DNA from: a virus
Lineage: Duplodnaviria > Heunggongvirae > Uroviricota > Caudoviricetes
IMG/VR virus record: IMGVR_UViG_2740892219_000006
Length of the DNA stretch: 46,408 nucleotides
Direction: 5' to 3' (one strand)
Below are positions 3,201-46,408 of the stretch, piece after piece. Every line of letters begins with the position of its first letter. Position 1 is the stretch's first letter. The notes beneath the pieces were generated by a model that saw only the letters and a list, made by a program, of their open reading frames with translations, was not told the DNA's origin and did not search any database. Position numbers and translations under genes: made by a program.

Positions 3201-3208
3201 GATTGATC

Positions 3209-3556
3209 ATGTGGACGGTACTTTTTAGCCAGCGATTTGACGACTGGCTAAATGAGCAAGAAGACGCTCTTCAGGAAAAGGTTTTGGCTGATTTGAAAAA
3301 TCTACAGGTTTACGGACCTGAGTTACCCAGGCCATATGCCGATACCGTAAAAGGTTCTCGGTACAAAAATATGAAAGAGCTTCGCGTTCAGTTTTCTGGC
3401 CGTCCGATAAGAGCCTTTTATGCGTTCGATCCGATTCGCCGGGCCATCGTTCTTTGTGCAGGAGACAAAAGTAACGATAAGCGGTTTTATAAAAAACTGG
3501 TGCGTATAGCTGAGGATGAGTTTGCAGCACATCTGAACACACTGGAGAGCAAGTAA
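3209..3556 (+). CDS. RelE/ParE-superfamily toxin (HigB/Gp49-like)
   Basis: 115-aa protein with the pattern recalled for HigB-like toxins (RVQFSGRPIRAFYAFD...AIVLCAGDKSNDKRFYKK); toxin-first order followed by an overlapping XRE antitoxin. Confidence 0.75.
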   Translation: MWTVLFSQRFDDWLNEQEDALQEKVLADLKNLQVYGPELPRPYADTVKGSRYKNMKELRVQFSGRPIRAFYAFDPIRRAIVLCAGDKSNDKRFYKKLVRIAEDEFAAHLNTLESK

Positions 3557-3855
3557 TGAGAACATTAGATGAGGTGATTGCCAGCCGTTCACCGGAAAGC
3601 CAGGCGCGAATTAAAGAAATGGCAGATGAGATGATTCTTGAGGTCGGCTTGCAGATGATGCGTGAAGAACTCCAGTTATCACAAAAACAGGTTGCTGAAG
3701 CGATGGGTATAAGCCAGCCAGCAGTAACAAAGCTGGAGCAGCGCGGAAATGATTTAAAGCTGGCGACGTTAAAGCGTTACGTTGAAGCTATGGGAGGCAA
3801 ATTAAGCCTGGATGTTGAGCTTCCCACAGGAAAGCGAGTAGCGTTCCATGTCTAA
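3556..3855 (+). CDS. XRE-family HTH antitoxin (HigA-like)
   Basis: 99-aa protein with HTH LSQKQVAEAMGISQPAVTKLE; start overlaps the toxin stop (TAATG). Confidence 0.75.
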   Translation: MRTLDEVIASRSPESQARIKEMADEMILEVGLQMMREELQLSQKQVAEAMGISQPAVTKLEQRGNDLKLATLKRYVEAMGGKLSLDVELPTGKRVAFHV

Positions 3856-3862
3856 CATAATG

Positions 3863-3890
3863 TAAGGCCCCATTGGGGCCTTACTTATTT
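3863..3890. terminator. Hairpin terminator between convergent genes
   Basis: TAAGGCCCC-ATTG-GGGCCTTA stem-loop followed by a T-rich tract. Confidence 0.55.
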
Positions 3891-5157: not shown

Positions 5158-5205
5158 TCCTTTACGGATCGTTTTATGGTGGTGTAATGTAAGCGCCAGA
5201 AAGAC

Positions 5206-5231
5206 AAAAACCGCCTTGCCGGGCGGTTTTC
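5206..5231 (+). terminator. Intrinsic terminator-like hairpin
   Basis: AAAACCGCC-TTGCCG-GGCGGTTTT immediately after the 4885-5157 gene. Confidence 0.5.
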
Positions 5232-5924
5232 AGTCTGAAATTTAAATCTTGCTTGGTAGGCTGGATTTAAAAAGACACCTCTTGATTGGGGCGGCTTTCT
5301 TGCGTCTAAAGATAATCAAATCTTTTTGCGCCTGCAACCCCTTTTTTACTGGTGCCCATTTCAGACTCACGCTCGCGTCGTTGTCTTTGCCACTTCGTTG
5401 GGTTCGGTGTTTTTGGGCGAAGTGGCGCGCGGGTATGCGTACAAGGGGAAAGTGTGCTGACGCAAGCCAGGAACAGCGATCTAAACTAAGTCGAGTCTGA
5501 GAAAGGCAGGAGTGCGACAACTCGCCTGTGCTCTATGAGCAGAAGAAGGTATATCAGACGACCAATGGCATGATTGTGGGCCACAGGGCGCACACGGCGG
5601 CGAAGCATTGGAAACGATGTGGAGCTATCTGGTGGCATGAGTTCCGGTACTCGATCTCGAGCTTTTTTTGATGCTTTTGAGAAGGGGCCGGAACTCCGGT
5701 AAAGGGCACCCTGTATGGGGGGAGGGGGGGGTGTGTCTGAAGGGTGGTTATCGGTTATGGTGGAATTATGATGCGTAGAAAAGCGAGTTTGCTGCAAGCT
5801 ATTGGGTCCATTATTTCTTTGTTTCCGGCAGTTGATCATTTTCGTCATATGGCGACGCGTTCCAGTATGGGCTTGGCGCGTGATGCTGACGCTATTCGAA
5901 AGGATTTTCAGAACGTCTCTGGCG

Positions 5925-5962
5925 TTGATAAGAGAGAAAAGAGTAAGGGGCCGTAGCCCCTT
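5925..5962 (-). terminator. Intrinsic terminator downstream of the antirepressor gene (minus strand)
   Basis: AAGGGGC-CGTA-GCCCCTT hairpin followed on the minus strand by CTCTTTTCTCTCTT. Confidence 0.6.
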
Positions 5963-5966
5963 GTAG

Positions 5967-7112
5967 TTATGGTCTGCTTTTCTGTGCCAGCTTATCAGCA
6001 CATGTTTTTATCAGATCCTGTAGTGTCCTGGCTGGCAGGTTTGCATCCAGAACGCTGAGTATGCTGTTGTGATCAGCCTGGTCGACTACTTTGCCTGTCG
6101 GTGGTAGTAGCTTGAGCTGAGGATTCAGGTTTTCGTCAAAGCTGATAAGTGCTCTGGCGTTTCTGAGCAGATCAAGAAGTAAGGCTGATATCACATTTTC
6201 CTGAGTCATTGCTGGCAGATTTAGCGTCGCTTTGGTTTTCCCTGTTGCCTTGTCAAACTCCTTGATTAGTTCCTTCCTGTAGTTCGGTTCCGTTAATAGC
6301 CGATTATGCTCTGTTGCCGCGCGGATAATCGTTTTTTCCTGGTACAGTCGTTTAGCCAGATCGCGCTCGTACTGTGTTTTTAACACGCTGCTGATAGCGT
6401 TAAAGGCTTCAATGTAGGCCAGCTTGATATCCTTCACGCCTGGGCCGTCGATACTTTCCATGAGCAAGGTAAATCCGTCTTTTGTCATGCGATAGATTGT
6501 TATTTCGCGGTCGCTTCCTTCCAGCGGTCGTTGCTCTTTAAAGAAATGACGTGCCGCAGCCGTGCGAGGAATGCGTAGCGCATCGATGGCCATAACGATG
6601 GAATTGTTTGTGGTGCTGAATGCCTGGGCAACATCGGCTGAGGTTGTGAGTGGCTCGTTGTTGCACACCTTAATGTAAAACATCGGTTTGGCGTTGAGCG
6701 TATCGACAACCTCACGAGCATTGTTTGGCGAGACGGTAACGGTCGCGGCCGTTTGCGCGTTCTGGTTGAAGTAGCAGTCTTCCAGCCGTTCGAACACATC
6801 CCACGCTTGGTTAGTTTCAAGCATTTTGGCGTGACGTGCAGCCCCGCGTTCTGTCCAGAGGATGAGGGAGCGGACTTTAGGTGAAACTGGATTTTGTGAG
6901 TAGTTTAAAGCTACCCGCAATTCTTTAAGGTCATTACCAACAACTTTGAAAAAGTGTTTCCCTTCAACGAAACGTACTTTGTTCTCATGATGATTCTGGC
7001 GAATACGCACCGGCTCAGTGCCGTAAAGCTGTGCCAGTAACTCGGTAGTAATGACAGGGATTTGGTTATGCAGGATAGGCTGTAGGGTGTTAACGGTCGG
7101 AAGCGTTTTCAT
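5967..7112 (-). CDS. Phage antirepressor (ORF6N-type N-terminal domain plus Rha-like domain)
   Basis: 381 aa; N-terminal ELLAQLYGTEPVRIRQNHHENKVRFVEGKHFF is recalled as ORF6N/Ant-like; central region ITIYRMTKDGFTLLMESIDGPG..IKLAYIEAFN is recalled as Rha-like. Confidence 0.7.
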   Translation of the reverse strand: MKTLPTVNTLQPILHNQIPVITTELLAQLYGTEPVRIRQNHHENKVRFVEGKHFFKVVGNDLKELRVALNYSQNPVSPKVRSLILWTERGAARHAKMLETNQAWDVFERLEDCYFNQNAQTAATVTVSPNNAREVVDTLNAKPMFYIKVCNNEPLTTSADVAQAFSTTNNSIVMAIDALRIPRTAAARHFFKEQRPLEGSDREITIYRMTKDGFTLLMESIDGPGVKDIKLAYIEAFNAISSVLKTQYERDLAKRLYQEKTIIRAATEHNRLLTEPNYRKELIKEFDKATGKTKATLNLPAMTQENVISALLLDLLRNARALISFDENLNPQLKLLPPTGKVVDQADHNSILSVLDANLPARTLQDLIKTCADKLAQKSRP

Positions 7113-7300
7113 TTTGTACCTCCCATAACTACTTTGGTTACGAGGGAGATTTTTGCGTCAGAAACAGTGTTATCGTTGCTGGCGATGCGCATAGCTTCGC
7201 GCTCGATGATTTCAGCCAGGCGGAATTTATCGGCGTATGAGGCTTTCTTGAGAAGGATCTTTACGAGGTTGACGTAATAGTCATGGGGTAGGTTTGTCAT
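7109..7300 (-). CDS. Small protein (63 aa) translationally coupled to the antirepressor
   Basis: ATG 7300 with GGAGAT RBS; stop overlaps the antirepressor start. Confidence 0.45.
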   Translation of the reverse strand: MTNLPHDYYVNLVKILLKKASYADKFRLAEIIEREAMRIASNDNTVSDAKISLVTKVVMGGTK

Positions 7301-7594
7301 TGTGATATCTCCGATTAAAGGAACTATCACCACCAATGACGCCAATCAATATGGTGGTGAGACGTACAGGGTTGGCGTAACCGGCACAATGACAAACCCG
7401 GCGCGGATTTCTCCGCCCCCGCACGCCCCACCATAATTTGGGTGTAGCAGTGCTTTACGCATAAAAAAACCGCTAACGCGGTATGCGCCATTGTGCAATC
7501 GGGACGCCAATCCCGACCGTAGATTTTGCTACGGCTCGGAAAGTGTCCACCAATGGCGCATTCATGTCAATACGGCGGGATTTTAACAGAGACA

Positions 7595-7609
7595 ACCACA
7601 TAGCGTGGG
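7595..7609. promoter_or_regulatory. Operator-like site ACCACATAGCGTGGG upstream of the antirepressor operon
   Basis: 14/15 match to the ACCAC-N5-GTGGT palindrome. Confidence 0.35.
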
Positions 7610-7680
7610 TTTGAAAAACGGAATTTTCTGCTCATTAAGCGCATGATTTGACCAATCAAATTTGTTTGATACTGAATTTT

Positions 7681-7806
7681 GGGAATCTAATGTGAATGTA
7701 AGGAACCTTAACGTGAGTGTTGGGAACTTAACGTGATTTATTGTTGAAAAAAGTTGCTTTGCATCCAATTTTTTGGATATGATTTGAATGTAGGGAACTT
7801 CATTGT
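7681..7806. promoter_or_regulatory. Direct-repeat array (GGGAAC-TTAACGTGA-like, 3-4 copies) plus palindrome ATCCAATTTTTTGGAT in a putative promoter
   Basis: Repeats at about 7681, 7700, 7720 and 7790; the 16-bp palindrome at 7763-7778 sits between TTGCTT (-35-like) and TATGAT (-10-like). Confidence 0.45.
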
Positions 7807-7869
7807 ATTGGATGTGGTTTCTTTTGAGAATGGAAATTGGTAGTGAATTTAATGCAGAGGAGGTAAAAA

Positions 7870-8442
7870 ATGACTGAACTGTCAAAAAACTCATGTTTTT
7901 CAACAATTCACCTAATGATCATAAAAGAACTTAGGCTAGAAAGAGGTGTGCATCAAGGAGTGCTGGCCCAAGCGGCTGGAAAAACACCAAACGCATGGAC
8001 AAAGATAGAGAACGGGCAGTCTGTATTAACGGTTGATGCTCTTTTTGGTGCTTGCTCTGCCCTTAATATTAGCCCAATGAATTTCATGTTGTTGGTAGAA
8101 AAACTGATTCCCGAATTTAATCGCTGTGGTTACTACTTTTTCCCGGGAACAATCGATCAGGACGAGGATAACCTTTTGCCTCTGATGCTGAGTTACTTCA
8201 ACAGCAAGGGGTTTGAAGCATTGAGAAATAGGCCATTCGAAAGAATTAGCATTAGCTCAATGGGATTCTCATTTGGGGGCGGCTTCCCTGTTACTCCAAC
8301 TGCTGTAATGTATTGTTGCGATGAAGCATATAGACATTGGGTCGATAACGGTGCTGATATGGATAATCGAGATTATCTGGAGTCATCAACAGGTCTTGGA
8401 CGGTTTTTAATGAGTGAAGAAACAAAAAAACCGCCCTATTGA
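7870..8442 (+). CDS. XRE-HTH regulator with C-terminal domain of unknown function
   Basis: 190 aa; N-terminal HTH (LAQAAGKTPNAWTKIENGQ); unrecognised C-terminal about 110 aa; GAGGAGG RBS. Confidence 0.55.
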   Translation: MTELSKNSCFSTIHLMIIKELRLERGVHQGVLAQAAGKTPNAWTKIENGQSVLTVDALFGACSALNISPMNFMLLVEKLIPEFNRCGYYFFPGTIDQDEDNLLPLMLSYFNSKGFEALRNRPFERISISSMGFSFGGGFPVTPTAVMYCCDEAYRHWVDNGADMDNRDYLESSTGLGRFLMSEETKKPPY

Positions 8443-8847
8443 GGACGGTTCTTTCGTGCTGATCGGATTCGCGGTCCTTTCAGCATTACGTTGTTGTATA
8501 AACAACCACGCAAGCACAAGCAGCAAGTTGATTTTACCCAAAAGGTAATAATAGTCCACTATTATGCTTCAAAAAATTGTGGTTCTTGTTGTGTCTGCAA
8601 ACTCACAGATTGTGGGTAGGTTACTGATTTTGTGAAAATAAACTGGTTTTTTCGTTTAATTTATTTCCTATTACTAATCTTAAAATAATCGTAAAATACC
8701 TGTGGACCTTCCCGCCGATTCGCACCCGGGCACCGACTTTAGGGGAGGATTTCCTGTTGCCGTACATGCAAGCACAAGCAGCCGTGCTTGCTCTCGCGTT
8801 GTTTTCGTCGGTGGGGATGCCGTGAAACGGCCTGTAAGGGCCATACA

Positions 8848-8970
8848 ATGAAAAAATACTGTATGTGTATTTTTATCGTTGTTACTGGGGCTTTGTTTAC
8901 GCCACATGGGGAGGGTTGGAAGATTACTGATAACGCTCTGAATGTGACGATAAACATTAGCAGCAAGTAG
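8848..8970 (+). CDS. Possible small hydrophobic peptide (40 aa)
   Basis: MKKYCMCIFIVVTGALFT signal-like N-terminus; immediately followed by a strong terminator; weak RBS. Confidence 0.25.
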   Translation: MKKYCMCIFIVVTGALFTPHGEGWKITDNALNVTINISSK

Positions 8971-8975
8971 CGATT

Positions 8976-8998
8976 AGGCCCCTTCGGGGGCCTTTTTT
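8976..8998 (+). terminator. Rho-independent terminator
   Basis: AGGCCCC-TTCG-GGGGCCT followed by TTTTTT. Confidence 0.7.
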
Positions 8999-10726: not shown

Positions 10727-10741
10727 ACCACAAAATGTGGT
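10727..10741. promoter_or_regulatory. Operator-like palindrome ACCACAAAATGTGGT (followed by a T-run)
   Basis: Perfect ACCAC-N5-GTGGT between the repressor gene and the next gene; could also act as a terminator hairpin. Confidence 0.45.
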
Positions 10742-10783: not shown

Positions 10784-11440
10784 TCATAACCAGTTGACAA
10801 CACTAACTACGCGGCCAAGAACTTTATAACGCTTAAATTCCTCATTATTCAGATGCTTAGTGTTCATTTCAGCATCCCTTTCGGTTGACAGCATAACAGC
10901 ATTGTCACCCGGTATGACTCTACAGTGCCTCAAAACAACCAGGCCATTTCTGTCTTCAAGGGCATAGATCCCCTCATGAATCTCTGTATCGTCTGTATTA
11001 ATCAGGACTTGGGAGCCAGGGGATATTGTTGGTGACATTAACTCATCGTTGCTCTGGAGAACTGACAGAGACGATGGGTTGATGTTCTTGCTTCGTAGAA
11101 TCTCCTGTTCTATCGCCAGCACTGGCTTTTCTCCGGCGTGCGATGCTATGTCATTTTTTATAGCTACAAGCCCAGGAATAACAGGAGCGTTAGTATTCTG
11201 GGGTGGGAACGGGTTATCTGTTAAGCACGCGATATAAGGCGCTGATGCTTTCAGGGCGTGCGCGATTTTCTTGATGGCAGGTATAGATGGTTGTCTTAAT
11301 CCGGCCTCATAGTTCTGCAAGGTGCTTAAGCCTATTCCAGTGACTTGCTGGAGATCTCCGGCAGTCATGCCGGATTGTTTCCGTAGAGTCTGAATGCGCA
11401 GACCTATTTCTTTCTTGATGTTCTCGTCGTTGCTTTTCAT
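10784..11440 (-). CDS. CI-like prophage repressor (N-terminal HTH, C-terminal S24 LexA-type peptidase domain)
   Basis: 218 aa; HTH near the N-terminus (LQQVTGIGLSTLQNYEAG); C-terminal region with lambda CI/LexA-like architecture. Confidence 0.85.
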   Translation of the reverse strand: MKSNDENIKKEIGLRIQTLRKQSGMTAGDLQQVTGIGLSTLQNYEAGLRQPSIPAIKKIAHALKASAPYIACLTDNPFPPQNTNAPVIPGLVAIKNDIASHAGEKPVLAIEQEILRSKNINPSSLSVLQSNDELMSPTISPGSQVLINTDDTEIHEGIYALEDRNGLVVLRHCRVIPGDNAVMLSTERDAEMNTKHLNNEEFKRYKVLGRVVSVVNWL

Positions 11441-11477: not shown

Positions 11478-11595
11478 ACCACATTTAGTGGTTTTCACAT
11501 GGTAAGACGAGAGGTGGACCACAAATAGAAGGTTATTTTTTGTTTTGCTCATTGAAAAACTCACGATATGTGGTTTTAATACCACGTATCGTGGT
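11478..11595. promoter_or_regulatory. Immunity control region: three ACCAC-N5-GTGGT operators with divergent promoters
   Basis: Sites at 11478-11492, 11560-11574 (one mismatch) and 11581-11595; rightward promoter TTGAAA (11552-11557), 17 bp, TTTAAT (11575-11580) overlapped by two operators. Confidence 0.6.
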
Positions 11596-20148: not shown

Positions 20149-20224
20149 GGCCCCTTAGCTCAGTGGTTAGAGCAGGCGACTCATAATCGCACGGTCATCG
20201 GTTCAAATCCGGTAGGGGCCACCA
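20149..20224 (+). tRNA. tRNA with CAU anticodon (Met or lysidine-dependent Ile2 type), 3-prime CCA encoded
   Basis: Manually folded cloverleaf: 7-bp acceptor GGCCCCT/AGGGGCC, D-stem GCTC/GAGC, anticodon loop CTCATAA, T-stem ATCGG/CCGGT with TTCAAAT loop; the 5-prime half resembles the E. coli Ile2 tRNA from memory. Confidence 0.85.
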
Positions 20225-34376: not shown

Positions 34377-34720
34377 TGAACTCCTTCAAAGAGGTTATAG
34401 CGCAAGATATTTCTGCAATATTCCTCAATGAAAAAGAGTTTGCCGATACATATAACATAGACGGCAAGGATATCCTTGCCGTTATTGATACAGACCTTAT
34501 TCATGAGCGGAATAAACGCTCATATGCTGAGTTTGCAGAGGGAATAAATCAGGGGCAAATAATATTATTTGTTTCAAGAAAAGATTTTCCTGTTCTCCCA
34601 GTCAAAGACCAGTCAATGAAAATCAACGGTAAAAATTATATTGTTGATGAAGTATCAGATAATGTTGGTGTATTGGAAATAACTCTCACTGTTAATACTA
34701 ACAGAGGAATGCCGATTTGA
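34376..34720 (+). CDS. Putative head completion / head-tail connector protein
   Basis: 114-aa ORF, synteny only. Confidence 0.4.
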   Translation: MNSFKEVIAQDISAIFLNEKEFADTYNIDGKDILAVIDTDLIHERNKRSYAEFAEGINQGQIILFVSRKDFPVLPVKDQSMKINGKNYIVDEVSDNVGVLEITLTVNTNRGMPI

Positions 34721-45063: not shown

Positions 45064-46408
45064 GTGAGTAAATTATTATTTACGATGACTGACGCCGGGC
45101 GTCAGGAGTTGGTTAATGCCAACAAAACAGGAACAAATAAAGTTGAGATTGTTTCTGTTGGTTTAGGTAGTAGATATTATGTCACGTCAACCTCACAAAC
45201 AAATATAACAGACGAAATAAAACGACTTACCACAATAGGTGGCAAAGTTGTTTCCCCTGATACAATTCATGTAACGGCGAAGGATGATAGTAAAGATGAG
45301 TATGTTGTCCATACAATAGGATTGTATACAAATAAGGGAACGTTGTTTGCTGTATACTCGCAAGAACAAGCAATAATAAATAAAGCATCATCTACTATTG
45401 CTTTAATATCAAGTGACATAGCAATTAAGACTCTTGATACTAAAAATATTACATTTGGTGATATTGAGTTTATTAATCCTCCCGCGACCGAAACTGTTGT
45501 TGGGGTTGCAAGATTTGCTAATGAACAAGAAATTGATGCAGGTACAGATGATTCCCTTGCTGTTTCAGCAAAGCGGCTTAAGCAAGCCATTGTGAAACAT
45601 GAGCAATCACGTAATCATCCTGATGCAACTTTAACCTCAAAAGGCTTTGTTCAACTTAGCAGCGCCACCAATAGCACGTCTGAAACGCTTGCTGCGACGC
45701 CTAAGGCTGTTAAGGCAGCATATGACCTGGCTAACGCTAAATACACCGCACAGGACGCTACCACGGCGCGAAAAGGGATTGTTCAGCTTAGTAGCGCAAC
45801 TAACAGCGATTCTGAGACGCTGGCAGCAACGCCAAAGGCGGTAAAGGCTGCATATGACCTTGCTAACGCTAAATACACCGCACAGGACGCTACCACGGCG
45901 CGAAAAGGGATTGTTCAACTCAGTAGCGCCACCAACAGCACGTCTGAAACACTGGCCGCGACATCGAAAGCTGTAAAGGTGGTAATGGATGAAACGAACA
46001 AGAAAGCGCCCCTGAACAGTCCGGCGCTGACCGGAACACCAACAACACCAACTGCGCCAAAAGGTACTAACAATACTCAGATCGCAAGCACGGCTTATGT
46101 TATGGCTGCGATCGCTGCCCTCGTGGACTCGTCGCCTGACGCACTGAATACGCTGAACGAGCTGGCTGCGGCGTTGGGCAACGACCCGAATTTTGCGACC
46201 ACCATGACTAACGCGCTTGCGGGTAAGCAACCGAAAGATGCCACCCTGACGGCGCTGGCCGGGCTTGCTACTGCGGCAGACAGGTTTCCGTATTTTACGG
46301 GGAATGATGTCGCCAGCCTGGCAACTCTGACAAAAGTCGGGCGGGATATTCTTGCGAAATCGACCGTTGCCGCCGTTATCGAATACCTCGGTTTACAGGA
46401 AACGGTAA
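45064..46408 (+). CDS. Tail fibre protein (P2 gpH / Mu S-like), 3-prime partial: ORF runs off the window
   Basis: GTG start after AAGGA; the sequence closely resembles P2 gpH as recalled, including Phage_fiber_2-type repeats and the C-terminal AVIEYLGLQETV segment; no stop before the window end. Confidence 0.85.
   Translation, partial: MSKLLFTMTDAGRQELVNANKTGTNKVEIVSVGLGSRYYVTSTSQTNITDEIKRLTTIGGKVVSPDTIHVTAKDDSKDEYVVHTIGLYTNKGTLFAVYSQEQAIINKASSTIALISSDIAIKTLDTKNITFGDIEFINPPATETVVGVARFANEQEIDAGTDDSLAVSAKRLKQAIVKHEQSRNHPDATLTSKGFVQLSSATNSTSETLAATPKAVKAAYDLANAKYTAQDATTARKGIVQLSSATNSDSETLAATPKAVKAAYDLANAKYTAQDATTARKGIVQLSSATNSTSETLAATSKAVKVVMDETNKKAPLNSPALTGTPTTPTAPKGTNNTQIASTAYVMAAIAALVDSSPDALNTLNELAAALGNDPNFATTMTNALAGKQPKDATLTALAGLATAADRFPYFTGNDVASLATLTKVGRDILAKSTVAAVIEYLGLQETV
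45640..46000 (+). repeat. Tandem 132-bp coding repeats (about 2.6 copies) inside the tail fibre gene
   Basis: Repeated block encoding KG(F/I)VQLSSATNS.SETLAATPKAVKAAYDLANAKYTAQDATTAR. Confidence 0.85.
46376..46401. other. gix/cix-like invertase recombination site inside the tail fibre gene
   Basis: TTATCGAATACC-TC-GGTTTACAGGAA, close to the Mu gix site as recalled (TTATCCAAAACCTCGGTTTACAGGAA). Confidence 0.6.

Follow-up and report, generated by a model that had tools for sequence, protein, structure and literature searches.

The antirepressor genes of P22-like phages are under the control of sar, a cis-antisense RNA. The immI region of P1 and P7 (P51 - a1 b1 - c4 - a2 b2 - icd - ant1/2; Rfam RF01695 and RF03163) encodes the C4 antisense RNA, in which two hairpins are enclosed by a long stem. 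Its a' and b' sequences are complementary to upstream mimics as well as to the place where translation of a small, ant-overlapping ORF begins. A repressor operator, Op51, lies upstream, and the specificity sequences differ between P1 and P7, which are heteroimmune. The details of the P1 system are reportedly those given by Citron & Schuster in 1990 and 1992, Biere et al. in 1992 and Hartmann et al. in 1995. Summaries of P1 immI (PMC12197685, PMC8546580) are behind the comparisons made here.

The isrK-orf45-anrP-isrJ region of Salmonella Gifsy-1 (RF01394) contains IsrK with its terminator, a C4-family RNA and an antirepressor gene. Read-through of the terminator generates a long RNA that is translationally silent and is activated in trans by the short IsrK (PMC4825925, Hershko-Shalev et al. 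2016). This RNA is translationally coupled to anrP, and a processed stable RNA, STnc1160, is found downstream of IsrK (PMC4825925). For Gifsy-1, IsrK is also reported to bind Hfq (PMC4825925). The same authors named the C4 region 'orf45', with a somewhat different structural model, and called IsrK a structural homologue of SeqA (PMC4825925). In the satellite phage P4, the CI RNA with seqA and seqC (Rfam clan CL00128) is a processed small RNA that pairs with repeats located both upstream and downstream within its own transcript, causing premature transcription termination of the replication genes.

The locus described here is part of a 46,408-nucleotide stretch of DNA, the whole of which is referred to as the window, from an E. 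coli RepA phage-plasmid (plasmid-prophage) of approximately 48 kb. Very probably, the interval 7301-7860 holds two independent regulatory modules back to back: an antirepressor RNA switch of the P1-immI/Gifsy-1 type on the minus strand (7611..5967) and an optional HTH cassette on the plus strand (7612-8456). The structured leader of the antirepressor operon consists of two RNA genes already catalogued from phages, IsrK and C4 antisense RNA, and these very probably control whether the operon is translated. Two adjacent Rfam families match positions 7535..7350 of the minus strand, the ant strand, above their gathering scores and with E values of about 1e-12. The fold of the 251-nt leader has a z-score of -4.8, and none of 200 shuffled sequences was equally stable. 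The features of the first module are as follows.

7594..7611, no strand: operator-like palindrome AACCAC-ATAGC-GTGGGTT, core CCAC-N5-GTGG at 7596-7608
7542..7570, minus: isrK promoter as read from the sequence, -35 TTGACA (7570..7565), 17-nt spacer, -10 GACACT (7547..7542), predicted start near 7535
7463..7535, minus: IsrK RNA (counterpart of the c4 a1/b1 leader), Rfam RF01394, 67.3 bits (gathering score 50)
7535..7516, minus: IsrK hairpin 1
7515..7500, minus: IsrK hairpin 2, its loop showing b1 (AUUGGCGU, 7511..7504)
7496..7486, minus: IsrK site a1 (GCACAAUGGCG)
7482..7463, minus: IsrK intrinsic terminator, found by terminator scan
7350..7438, minus: C4 antisense RNA, Rfam RF01695, 72.3 bits (gathering score 45), full-length match (1-87)
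7433..7417 with 7371..7355, minus: C4 closing stem of 17 bp, then 3' CCA (ACCA at 7355..7352)
7416..7403, minus: C4 hairpin 1
7402..7380, minus: C4 hairpin 2, with the 13-nt loop a' (GGGUUUGUCAUUGUG, 7399..7385)
7378..7371, minus: single-stranded b' of C4 (ACGCCAAC)
7328..7359, minus: b2 hairpin, arms CACCACCA and UGGUGGUG, its loop showing target b2 (AUUGGCGU, 7346..7339)
7290..7317, minus: initiation region of the 63-codon ORF, Shine-Dalgarno GGAG (7312..7309) and AUG (7300..7298)
7304..7290, minus: target site a2 (CACAAUGACAAACCU), complementary to C4 a' over 15 nt across the ORF AUG
7109..7300, minus: 63-aa leader ORF, from the ORF list, its stop overlapping the ant start as ATGA (7112..7109)
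5967..7112, minus: antirepressor gene, 381 aa, Pfam domains ORF6N (5.9e-20) and Phage_pRha (4.7e-12)

A sequence-only reading of the interval had pointed to three structures in the leader, and each was located within a few bases of its reported position. The first inverted repeat, CACCACCA (7328-7335) with TGGTGGTG (7352-7359), is the hairpin presenting b2. The second, TCGGGA (7499-7504) with TCCCGA (7511-7516), is IsrK hairpin 2. The minus-strand hairpin with a T run, ACCGCGTTAGCGGT followed by seven T (7482..7463), is the IsrK terminator.

The IsrK RNA ends in a Rho-independent terminator, has the C4-family RNA and the antirepressor gene directly downstream, and carries mimics of both C4 target sites, a1 and b1. 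The Rfam model c4-a1b1 (RF03163, 'a1,b1 targets of C4') overlaps IsrK in Gifsy-1 and also here, where it scores 41.7 bits, just under its gathering score of 46.7 (E = 4e-9). The isrK promoter aligns in register with TTGACA-17-CTATAT and TTGATT-17-TACACT of related loci; the weak -10 explains why it was not listed by a simple promoter scan. A second, operator-overlapping promoter like P51a of P1 was sought by eye upstream of it and set aside, convincing hexamers being absent and the sequence beyond the operator varying among relatives. The 9-mer CATTGGTGG is present both in the promoter spacer and downstream of C4; as the second occurrence is not conserved in relatives, this is treated as coincidence.

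The minimum-free-energy fold of the isolated C4 RNA is a long closing stem around two hairpins. The consensus fold of 18 variants (RNAalifold) has the same structure, with 27 pairs of which 5, all of them in hairpin 1, show double-sided compensatory changes. The variants hardly differ in the closing stem, since a part of this stem had served as the pattern used to collect them. Its 3' strand is also the 5' arm of the b2 hairpin, and the two structures are therefore mutually exclusive. A GGUGGUGA-like arm, 18-19 nt further downstream, is shared by 80 of the 83 unique relatives. UAAUCGG (7317..7311) can pair with CCGGUUA of C4.

The 15 bp duplex of a' with a2 has an energy of -23.2 kcal/mol, compared with -11.0 +/- 2.3 for shuffled sequences, none of 500 being as good. 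When the whole leader is folded, this helix encloses the AUG of the 63-codon ORF. The a'/a1 duplex, at -19.5 kcal/mol, was equalled by 4 of 500 shuffles, and the b'/b1 duplex in the window has an energy of -17.5 kcal/mol. Taken alone, the b'/b2 duplex (-10.5 kcal/mol) does not stand out from shuffled sequences, of which 103 in 500 do equally well, and the argument for this pairing is confined to co-variation. In the 83 unique related sequences, which were gathered by the C4 3'-stem pattern and are hence a biased and related sample, the variable 3-nt core of the b sites (b', b1, b2) is mutually complementary in 81 and falls into three types. Taken pairwise, b' co-varies with b2 in 82 of the 83, and b1 is complementary to b' in 82. 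Across 34 distinct a' regions, the longest a'/a1 helix averages 9.4 nt in cognate and 5.9 nt in non-cognate combinations, and the longest a'/a2 helix 9.7 nt and 7.2 nt, contrasts that are in part due to common descent. Within the phage-plasmid family there is reassortment of a and b types, with all three sites changing together; two relatives, L001 and L002, have the specificities AAC and CAUGAUGA.

In the proposed switch, the promoter, with its perfect -35 and weak -10, would initiate RNA near 7535. The majority of transcripts would probably end at the IsrK terminator as short IsrK, and read-through RNA would span C4, the 63-codon ORF and ant. The a' loop of C4 would pair with the 15 nt over the ORF AUG, and b' with the loop-displayed site 40 nt upstream, blocking the loading of ribosomes on the leader ORF. 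From the ATGA overlap, ant is expected to be translationally coupled to this ORF, and Ant would therefore not be made while C4 is paired. C4 may act in cis on the read-through RNA, or in trans once excised; the tRNA-like stem and ACCA end suggest processing by RNase P. Since a1 and b1 mimic both target sites, the short IsrK could compete for C4 as a decoy and switch translation on, the activating role shown for IsrK of Gifsy-1 (PMC4825925). The a and b sequences would form a specificity code that differs among related elements (heteroimmunity), and the putative operator for a CI-like repressor upstream of the promoter would add control at the protein level. Of the sequence-only reading, P1-type antisense control of the ant leader is supported, in combination with a leaky terminator.

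The order of elements at the locus is the same as in P1 immI and in Gifsy-1. This architecture, that of c4-icd-ant in P1 and of isrK-anrP in Gifsy-1, is the reason that the P1 half of the earlier suggestion of P1/P22-type ant control holds, through the IsrK and C4 pair and the co-variation of loops with targets. As between P1 and P7, specificity sequences differ between related elements, and the CCAC-N5-GTGG site may be comparable to Op51. There are also differences from P1. The leader ORF has no detectable homology to Icd, a2 takes in the AUG itself instead of the Shine-Dalgarno region alone, and the a1/b1 leader has an intrinsic terminator of its own, from which a discrete short transcript, IsrK, would be expected. 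In place of the P1 proteins there are an ORF6N/Rha-type antirepressor and, rather than P1 C1, a CI/LexA-like immunity repressor with an S24 domain, and the host is a 48-kb RepA plasmid-prophage. Gifsy-1 DNA is 79% identical to the C4 region of the window, and the plasmid of E. coli ATCC 25922 (NZ_CP009073) has 98% identity at this locus. In Gifsy-1, however, only 55 nt lie between C4 and the start of ant, and C4 shares its sequence with the coupled 'orf45'; there is no separate leader ORF, whereas here a separate 63-codon ORF follows C4. Unlike Gifsy-1, the locus has no isrJ homologue downstream of ant and no Q-antiterminator gene upstream, and is carried by a plasmid-prophage rather than an integrated lambdoid prophage. 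In contrast to the transcription termination in P4, the downstream pairing site here overlaps a start codon, which indicates translational control.

The 63-aa ORF belongs to phrog_7886 (E = 4.5e-46, function unknown) and is annotated as a 192-nt CDS in one relative. It has no Pfam or NCBIfam family match, and a tblastn search with it against 50,697 phage records, at E values up to 0.01, found only three Yersinia phage-plasmids. Homology to P1 Icd was set aside, no similarity having been detected, and the ORF is, by its placement in the sequence, a positional analogue of P1 icd only. The antirepressor matches several PHROG anti-repressor families.

One alternative is that the leader is a cis-acting attenuator only, in which the hairpins and T run do no more than end transcription within the 5' UTR of ant or give it structure, without separate trans-acting RNAs. 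A terminator is indeed present within the leader, and the fold of the full leader pairs a' with a2 in cis. Alternative structures of the long RNA are also stressed in the Gifsy-1 work (PMC4825925). However, IsrK and C4 both match stand-alone RNA families, the C4 stem ends in ACCA as in RNase P substrates, and in Salmonella a stable processed RNA is found downstream of IsrK and the short IsrK acts in trans. A plain attenuator would not need the three-way co-variation that includes the upstream mimics. A leader acting only in cis is therefore considered unlikely.

The core CCAC-N5-GTGG of the operator-like palindrome is found at -61 to -73 relative to the IsrK 5' end, on its upstream side. The window contains 6 copies of this sequence where 0.27 would be expected, a number that none of 100 shuffles reached; other copies, sites near 11479 and 11582 among them, are located in the cI/cro-like intergenic region and immediately upstream of repA. 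At the corresponding positions of 8 relatives, the arms do not change but the N5 does. The copy at 7596-7608 is probably a site for the CI-like HTH+S24 repressor encoded at 11440..10784. It overlaps neither the -35 nor the -10 of the isrK promoter and, given its position at -61 to -73, simple repression is not obvious. Control of the locus by LexA was considered and rejected, since CTGT-N8-ACAG occurs once in the window, at 34689, away from the locus.

The second module is made up of the following features.

7673..7733, plus: tandem 20-21-bp repeats R1 (7673-7692), R2 (7693-7713) and R3 (7714-7733)
7754..7783, plus: putative HTH promoter, read from the sequence only, TTGCTT (7754-7759), 18 nt, TATGAT (7778-7783)
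7785..7805, plus: fourth repeat R4 (TGAATGTAGGGAACTTCATTG), just downstream of the putative -10
7870..8442, plus: XRE-family HTH protein, 190 aa, Shine-Dalgarno GGAGG at 7859-7863, Pfam HTH_3 at residues 18-69
8424..8456, no strand: terminator-like bidirectional hairpin with A-run and T-run flanks at the HTH gene 3' end, from the sequence and an alignment with the related plasmid L008, not listed by the terminator scan

The HTH protein matches Pfam HTH_3 (30.3 bits against 23) and HTH_31 (29.9 against 27), and has 34 homologues sharing invariant residues such as Y148 and C149. The AlphaFold model has a mean pLDDT of 84.5. Only its N-terminal domain matches structures in the PDB, the best being C.Esp1396I and ClgR; the conserved C-terminal domain of about 110 aa has no PDB match. 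This additional domain sets it apart from XRE controller (C) proteins of the C.Esp1396I type, as does the absence of adjoining restriction-modification genes and the presence of direct 20-bp repeats of a half-site in place of two adjacent palindromes. A role in a defence system was not adopted, as PADLOC returned only generic HTH matches and NCBIfam nothing beyond a HipB-like HTH below threshold. As a cassette the gene is optional: about 15 of 59 related plasmids have it, and L008 does not. Its homologues are solitary, in unrelated contexts beside integrases or other islands, without ant genes.

Each of R1 to R3 has an RGGAAY half-site followed by GTGA 5-6 nt further on, and with R4 these account for the 3-4 direct GGGAAC-type repeats noticed previously. 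Tandem Repeats Finder reports 3.2 copies of period 20 at 7673-7736 (score 70, consensus TGAATGTTGGGAACTTAACG), and the repeat search placed R1-R3 in its families D1, D3 and D4. Allowing up to 3 mismatches, the motif occurs 3 times in the window, all at this locus, against 0.95 expected, and 4 of 100 shuffles reach 3. This enrichment of sequence matches is modest alone, but is strongly backed by the homologous loci. Upstream of 15 HTH homologues, which come from differing genomic contexts, there are 52 GGAAY/RTTCC sites in 3,030 nt, compared with 10.1 +/- 3.2 expected, and 8 inverted pairs of them, compared with 0.017; neither number was reached in 2,000 shuffles. One Advenella homologue has six 20-bp tandem copies. 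The repeats in the window are imperfect versions of the homologue palindromes, their right half being GTGA rather than GTTCC.

The four 20-bp GGGAAC repeats are therefore probably autoregulatory operators bound by the HTH protein, and the enrichment of the GGAAC half-site upstream of the 15 homologues favours this over iterons. In the proposed layout, three repeats would lie upstream of the putative HTH promoter and one at the start site, where the position of R4 would suit autorepression. The promoter itself is a weak hexamer match that is absent from the promoter-scan list. The perfect palindrome reported within it, ATCCAATTTTTTGGAT (7763-7778), is instead a 6-nt inverted repeat, ATCCAA-TTTT-TTGGAT, with TTTT as spacer. 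It does lie between the hexamers read by eye, so that its reported location inside a promoter stands as far as that weak promoter does. In this stretch of 33% GC there are 3 such 6-nt inverted repeats against 0.64 expected, a number reached by 6% of shuffles and not significant, and ATCCAA/TTGGAT was not retained as an operator because it is not beyond chance.

That the HTH protein is a dedicated regulator of the divergent isrK-C4-ant operon, acting through these repeats, was also considered. The two transcription units are divergent and share a 330-bp intergenic region, with the nearest repeat approximately 140 bp from the isrK start. However, relatives without the HTH gene, and others in which it has a different upstream region, still share the isrK promoter and operator, the two RNAs and ant. 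The conserved part of the promoter region, 7536-7611, contains no GGAAY pair, and the homologues are solitary, without ant genes alongside. As an optional cassette with homologues in unrelated contexts, the HTH gene does not have the look of an ant regulator, and such a dedicated role is very unlikely.

Tandem direct repeats spaced by about two helical turns, on a plasmid with repA and parA, could also serve in replication as iterons, determine incompatibility, or act as centromere for the ParA system close by. Most sister plasmids, however, lack the repeats yet have repA and an identical ParA (WP_000156167). The distance from the repeats to repA is approximately 6.9 kb, the end of the par operon is 1.4 kb away, no further copy is found elsewhere in the window, and the half-site accompanies the HTH gene into chromosomal, non-plasmid contexts. 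The description 'iteron-like' is thus not upheld in the replication sense, in view of the distance from repA and the many sister plasmids that keep repA and parA without repeats, and this explanation is highly improbable. Autoregulatory operators would give a testable site, GGAAC-N5/6-GTTCC, for an uncharacterised family of regulators on mobile elements.

The P22 half of the earlier suggestion, a sar-like cis-antisense RNA whose plus-strand transcription would run over the ribosome-binding site of ant, is scarcely credible, as the conserved structures and all of the complementarities are on the ant strand, the plus strand of the leader has no Rfam match even at E values up to 1, and consensus scans, which are a weak test, identified no promoter-like or terminator-like site on the plus strand at 6900-7600.

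With P1-type antisense control as the preferred reading, what was an anonymous structured leader becomes an annotated switch, and IsrK, c4-a1b1 and the P1 leader are seen to be one device. None of the related public records viewed carries an IsrK or C4 annotation. Current understanding of phage immunity is not changed by these findings. The co-variation table provides a ready set of natural specificity variants for RNA-based heteroimmunity. It is a tentative and rather doubtful possibility that the IsrK/C4/target triplets form a combinatorial address code common to the phage-plasmids and the numerous lambdoid prophages that E. coli and Salmonella carry. In a cell with several such elements, C4 RNAs and IsrK sponges of matching specificity would then make up a network that decides which antirepressor fires. 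The sample contains at least about 20 a-types and 3 b-types. If such a code exists, there would be cross-immunity or cross-induction at the RNA level between plasmid-prophages and chromosomal prophages, and the CI-type operator at -67 would link the RNA network to the main repressor here. In relatives without the HTH cassette, the hairpin at 8424..8456 lies directly upstream of the operator and isrK promoter. The same module is found in 268 phage records, many of them Shiga-toxin phages.

The leader of ant, the 381-aa antirepressor gene, contains two adjoining minus-strand matches to RNA families, found in an Rfam search of the whole window at curated thresholds. These and the other features of the region are:

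7870-8442, plus strand: HTH gene, 190 aa
7570..7565, minus strand: perfect -35 (TTGACA) of the isrK promoter
7547..7542, minus strand: weak -10 (GACACT) of the isrK promoter
7535..7463, minus strand: isrK (RF01394), Rfam match, 67.3 bits
7438..7350, minus strand: C4 antisense RNA (RF01695), Rfam match, 72.3 bits
7399..7385, minus strand: a', the 13-nt loop of C4 hairpin 2 with its flanks
7304..7290, minus strand: a2, CACAAUGACAAACCU
7300..7109, minus strand: 63-codon ORF preceding ant
7112..5967, minus strand: ant, 381 aa, with ORF6N and Rha domain matches

All of the structures listed in the sequence-only reading are found in the sequence. The inverted repeat of TCGGGA (7499-7504) and TCCCGA (7511-7516) is IsrK hairpin 2, and the hairpin followed by seven T on the minus strand (7482..7463) is the IsrK terminator. 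The pair CACCACCA (7328-7335) and TGGTGGTG (7352-7359) is a hairpin between the 3' strand of the C4 closing stem and the segment downstream. The isrK promoter is correctly spaced from the IsrK 5' end and is aligned to better promoters in relatives. In a permissive search the Rfam model "a1, b1 targets of C4" covered the 5' part of IsrK at 41.7 bits, narrowly under its threshold. Compared with shuffled versions, the leader has a far more stable fold (z = -4.8), and the C4 fold, a 17-bp stem ending in ACCA with two hairpins, has compensatory changes at five pairs (18 variants).

The a' segment of C4 is perfectly complementary to a2, a target site that contains the AUG of the 63-codon ORF, with a duplex energy of -23.2 kcal/mol against -11.0 +/- 2.3 for shuffles. 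The single-stranded b' segment (ACGCCAAC) matches b2 (AUUGGCGU, 7346..7339) in the loop of a downstream hairpin. Both targets are repeated in IsrK, with b1 (AUUGGCGU) in the loop of hairpin 2 and a1 (GCACAAUGGCG) just before the terminator. When the complete leader is folded, a' pairs with a2 in cis and the start codon is hidden within the helix. The stop codon of the 63-codon ORF and the start codon of ant overlap as ATGA, an arrangement typical of translational coupling. A 54-codon ORF (7327-7491, minus strand), lacking a Shine-Dalgarno sequence, starts at an AUG within a1 and extends through C4; the ORF probably arises as a side effect of a1 imitating a2, the start-codon target. In overlapping C4 sequence it is reminiscent of Gifsy-1 'orf45'.

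Viral contigs scanned for exact matches to a C4 3' stem pattern gave 120 loci and, with plasmid relatives added, 83 unique sequences. Counts over these are not of independent events, because a C4 pattern was used to gather the sample and the sequences in it are related. At the b sites the variable 3-nt core is of three types, CGU, AAC and UCU, and is mutually complementary across all three places in 81 of these 83 sequences; the hairpin presenting b2 is retained in 80. Among 34 distinct a' regions, the longest helix averages 9.4 nt with the cognate a1 and 5.9 nt with non-cognate ones, and 9.7 nt versus 7.2 nt for a2. Site a2 overlaps the Shine-Dalgarno sequence in most relatives and covers the AUG in the phage-plasmid family of the window. 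Within this family, where flanks are 90–98% identical, the a and b types reassort and the three copies change together, the same pattern as in the heteroimmunity of P1 and P7. The isrK-C4 module is widespread and mostly unannotated, being matched in 268 phage records, many of them Stx phages.

The switch at this locus is one of a well-described kind. For P1 c4, Citron & Schuster, Biere et al. and Hartmann et al. reportedly described the a1/b1 and a2/b2 sites, the coupling through icd and processing by RNase P. The present locus is like P1 in having a separate leader ORF; this ORF shows no detectable homology to Icd. In P1, processing yields c4, an antisense RNA that prevents Ant from being made (PMC12197685, PMC8546580). 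The experimentally studied Gifsy-1 carries isrK, C4, anrP and isrJ on one strand, in the order seen in the window. Part of its transcripts read through the isrK terminator, giving a long RNA that is translationally silent and is activated in trans by the short IsrK; anrP translation is coupled to an upstream ORF (Hershko-Shalev et al., PMC4825925). Downstream of Gifsy-1 IsrK is the stable processed RNA STnc1160, which the authors compare with P4 CI/seqA (PMC4825925). The antisense and attenuation control proposed from the sequence stands for the P1 type and is not supported for the P22 type, consensus scans having found no plus-strand promoter or terminator in the leader. The small variations of this locus are the non-Icd leader ORF, the target over the AUG, the putative CI-type operator and the plasmid-prophage host.

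The region shares 98% identity with a 48.5-kb circular plasmid of E. coli ATCC 25922 and 89–92% with three 49-kb Yersinia phages. Since repA, parA and a CI-like repressor occur in these records together with phage genes, the window is, judged by its relatives, a plasmid-prophage. The motif CCAC-N5-GTGG occurs 6 times in the window against 0.27 expected. The stretch separating the CI-like repressor gene from the divergent early gene holds two exact copies and a third that has a single mismatch; single copies lie just upstream of repA, downstream of the repressor gene, at 45230, and at 7596-7608, the last being upstream of the isrK -35 and 61–73 nt upstream of the IsrK start. In eight relatives the motif has the same positions, with invariant arms and a variable spacer. 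On the model of P1 Op51, it is most simply seen as a putative operator at which the immunity repressor would bind. Dispersed AAAACCAC-N5-GTGGTTTT palindromes (717-729, 10728-10740, 11479-11491, 11561-11573, 11582-11594 and 45230-45242) probably mark the regulon of the CI-like repressor, including the repA promoter region, where a repressor site would link immunity to plasmid replication.

The HTH gene and its upstream region (~7612-8420) form an indel when compared with plasmid p48; other relatives have the gene with a shorter, different upstream region. Of the 59 plasmids that match, the window-type region is present in 8 and the HTH gene alone in 7, and the rest have neither, a distribution that rules out a replication or partition role for the repeats. 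These are three tandem 20–21-bp units (R1-R3, 7673-7733) upstream of a weak putative HTH promoter, TTGCTT-18-TATGAT, and a fourth copy (R4, 7785-7805) at the start site. In the HTH protein, the XRE HTH domain is nearest to those of restriction-modification controller proteins and ClgR, and the conserved C-terminal domain had no PDB match. Homologues (31–57% identity) occur as lone genes at the edges of prophages or islands in Vibrio, Deefgea, Advenella, Pseudomonas and others. The half-site of the window repeats recurs upstream of them, as GGAACATAATGTTCC in Vibrio, GGAACAATAAGTTCC in Deefgea, and GGAAC/T-N6-G/ATTCC pairs in Pseudomonas and Limnohabitans. In Enterobacter there are two direct repeats at a distance of 21 bp, and Advenella (locus L133, ~3740-3870, MAG contig JAQVEL010000011.1) has six perfect 20-bp tandem copies of TTTTCAGGAACATGCATATC, containing AGGAAC and adjoining an IS66 element. 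Over 15 loci the half-site 5-mer occurs 52 times (10.1 +/- 3.2 expected) and inverted pairs 8 times (0.017 expected). With the half-site enriched in this way, the repeats are best read as putative operators of the HTH protein itself, and the label "iteron-like" gives way to autoregulatory operators of an optional cassette. Nothing found here ties the protein to the ant operon.

The supposed perfect palindrome ATCCAATTTTTTGGAT consists of 6-nt inverted arms flanking TTTT, an arrangement not significantly enriched in this AT-rich stretch. A near-palindrome, CAATCAAATTTGTTTG (7653-7668), lies between the CCAC-N5-GTGG operator and the repeats. Within the cassette, a promoter-like site (7802-7830, minus strand, TTCTCA-17-TACAAT, 9/12, a consensus match only) is directed from the HTH 5' region to the repeats and isrK.

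Downstream of ant, ~750 nt (5200-5966) have no convincing ORF, with relatives annotating a 189-nt gene only; the whole-window search matched no Rfam family in this stretch, the position of the sRNA isrJ in Gifsy-1. The plasmid-prophage also carries a tRNA gene with anticodon CAU (Met or Ile2 type) at 20149-20221, plus strand. At 3203-3855, plus strand, are two ORFs (117 and 99 aa) that overlap and agree in size and order with a RelE/ParE-family toxin and an HTH antitoxin in the annotation of the ATCC 25922 plasmid; they are likely an addiction module. At 8702-8998, plus strand, is a strong match to the Rfam ryfA RNA, with 143 bits where the gathering score is 80; it is kept in the ATCC 25922 plasmid and the Yersinia phage, and one relative has a 150-nt ORF annotated on the opposite strand. 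On a plasmid-prophage, ryfA could serve as a maintenance module resembling a type I toxin-antitoxin system.
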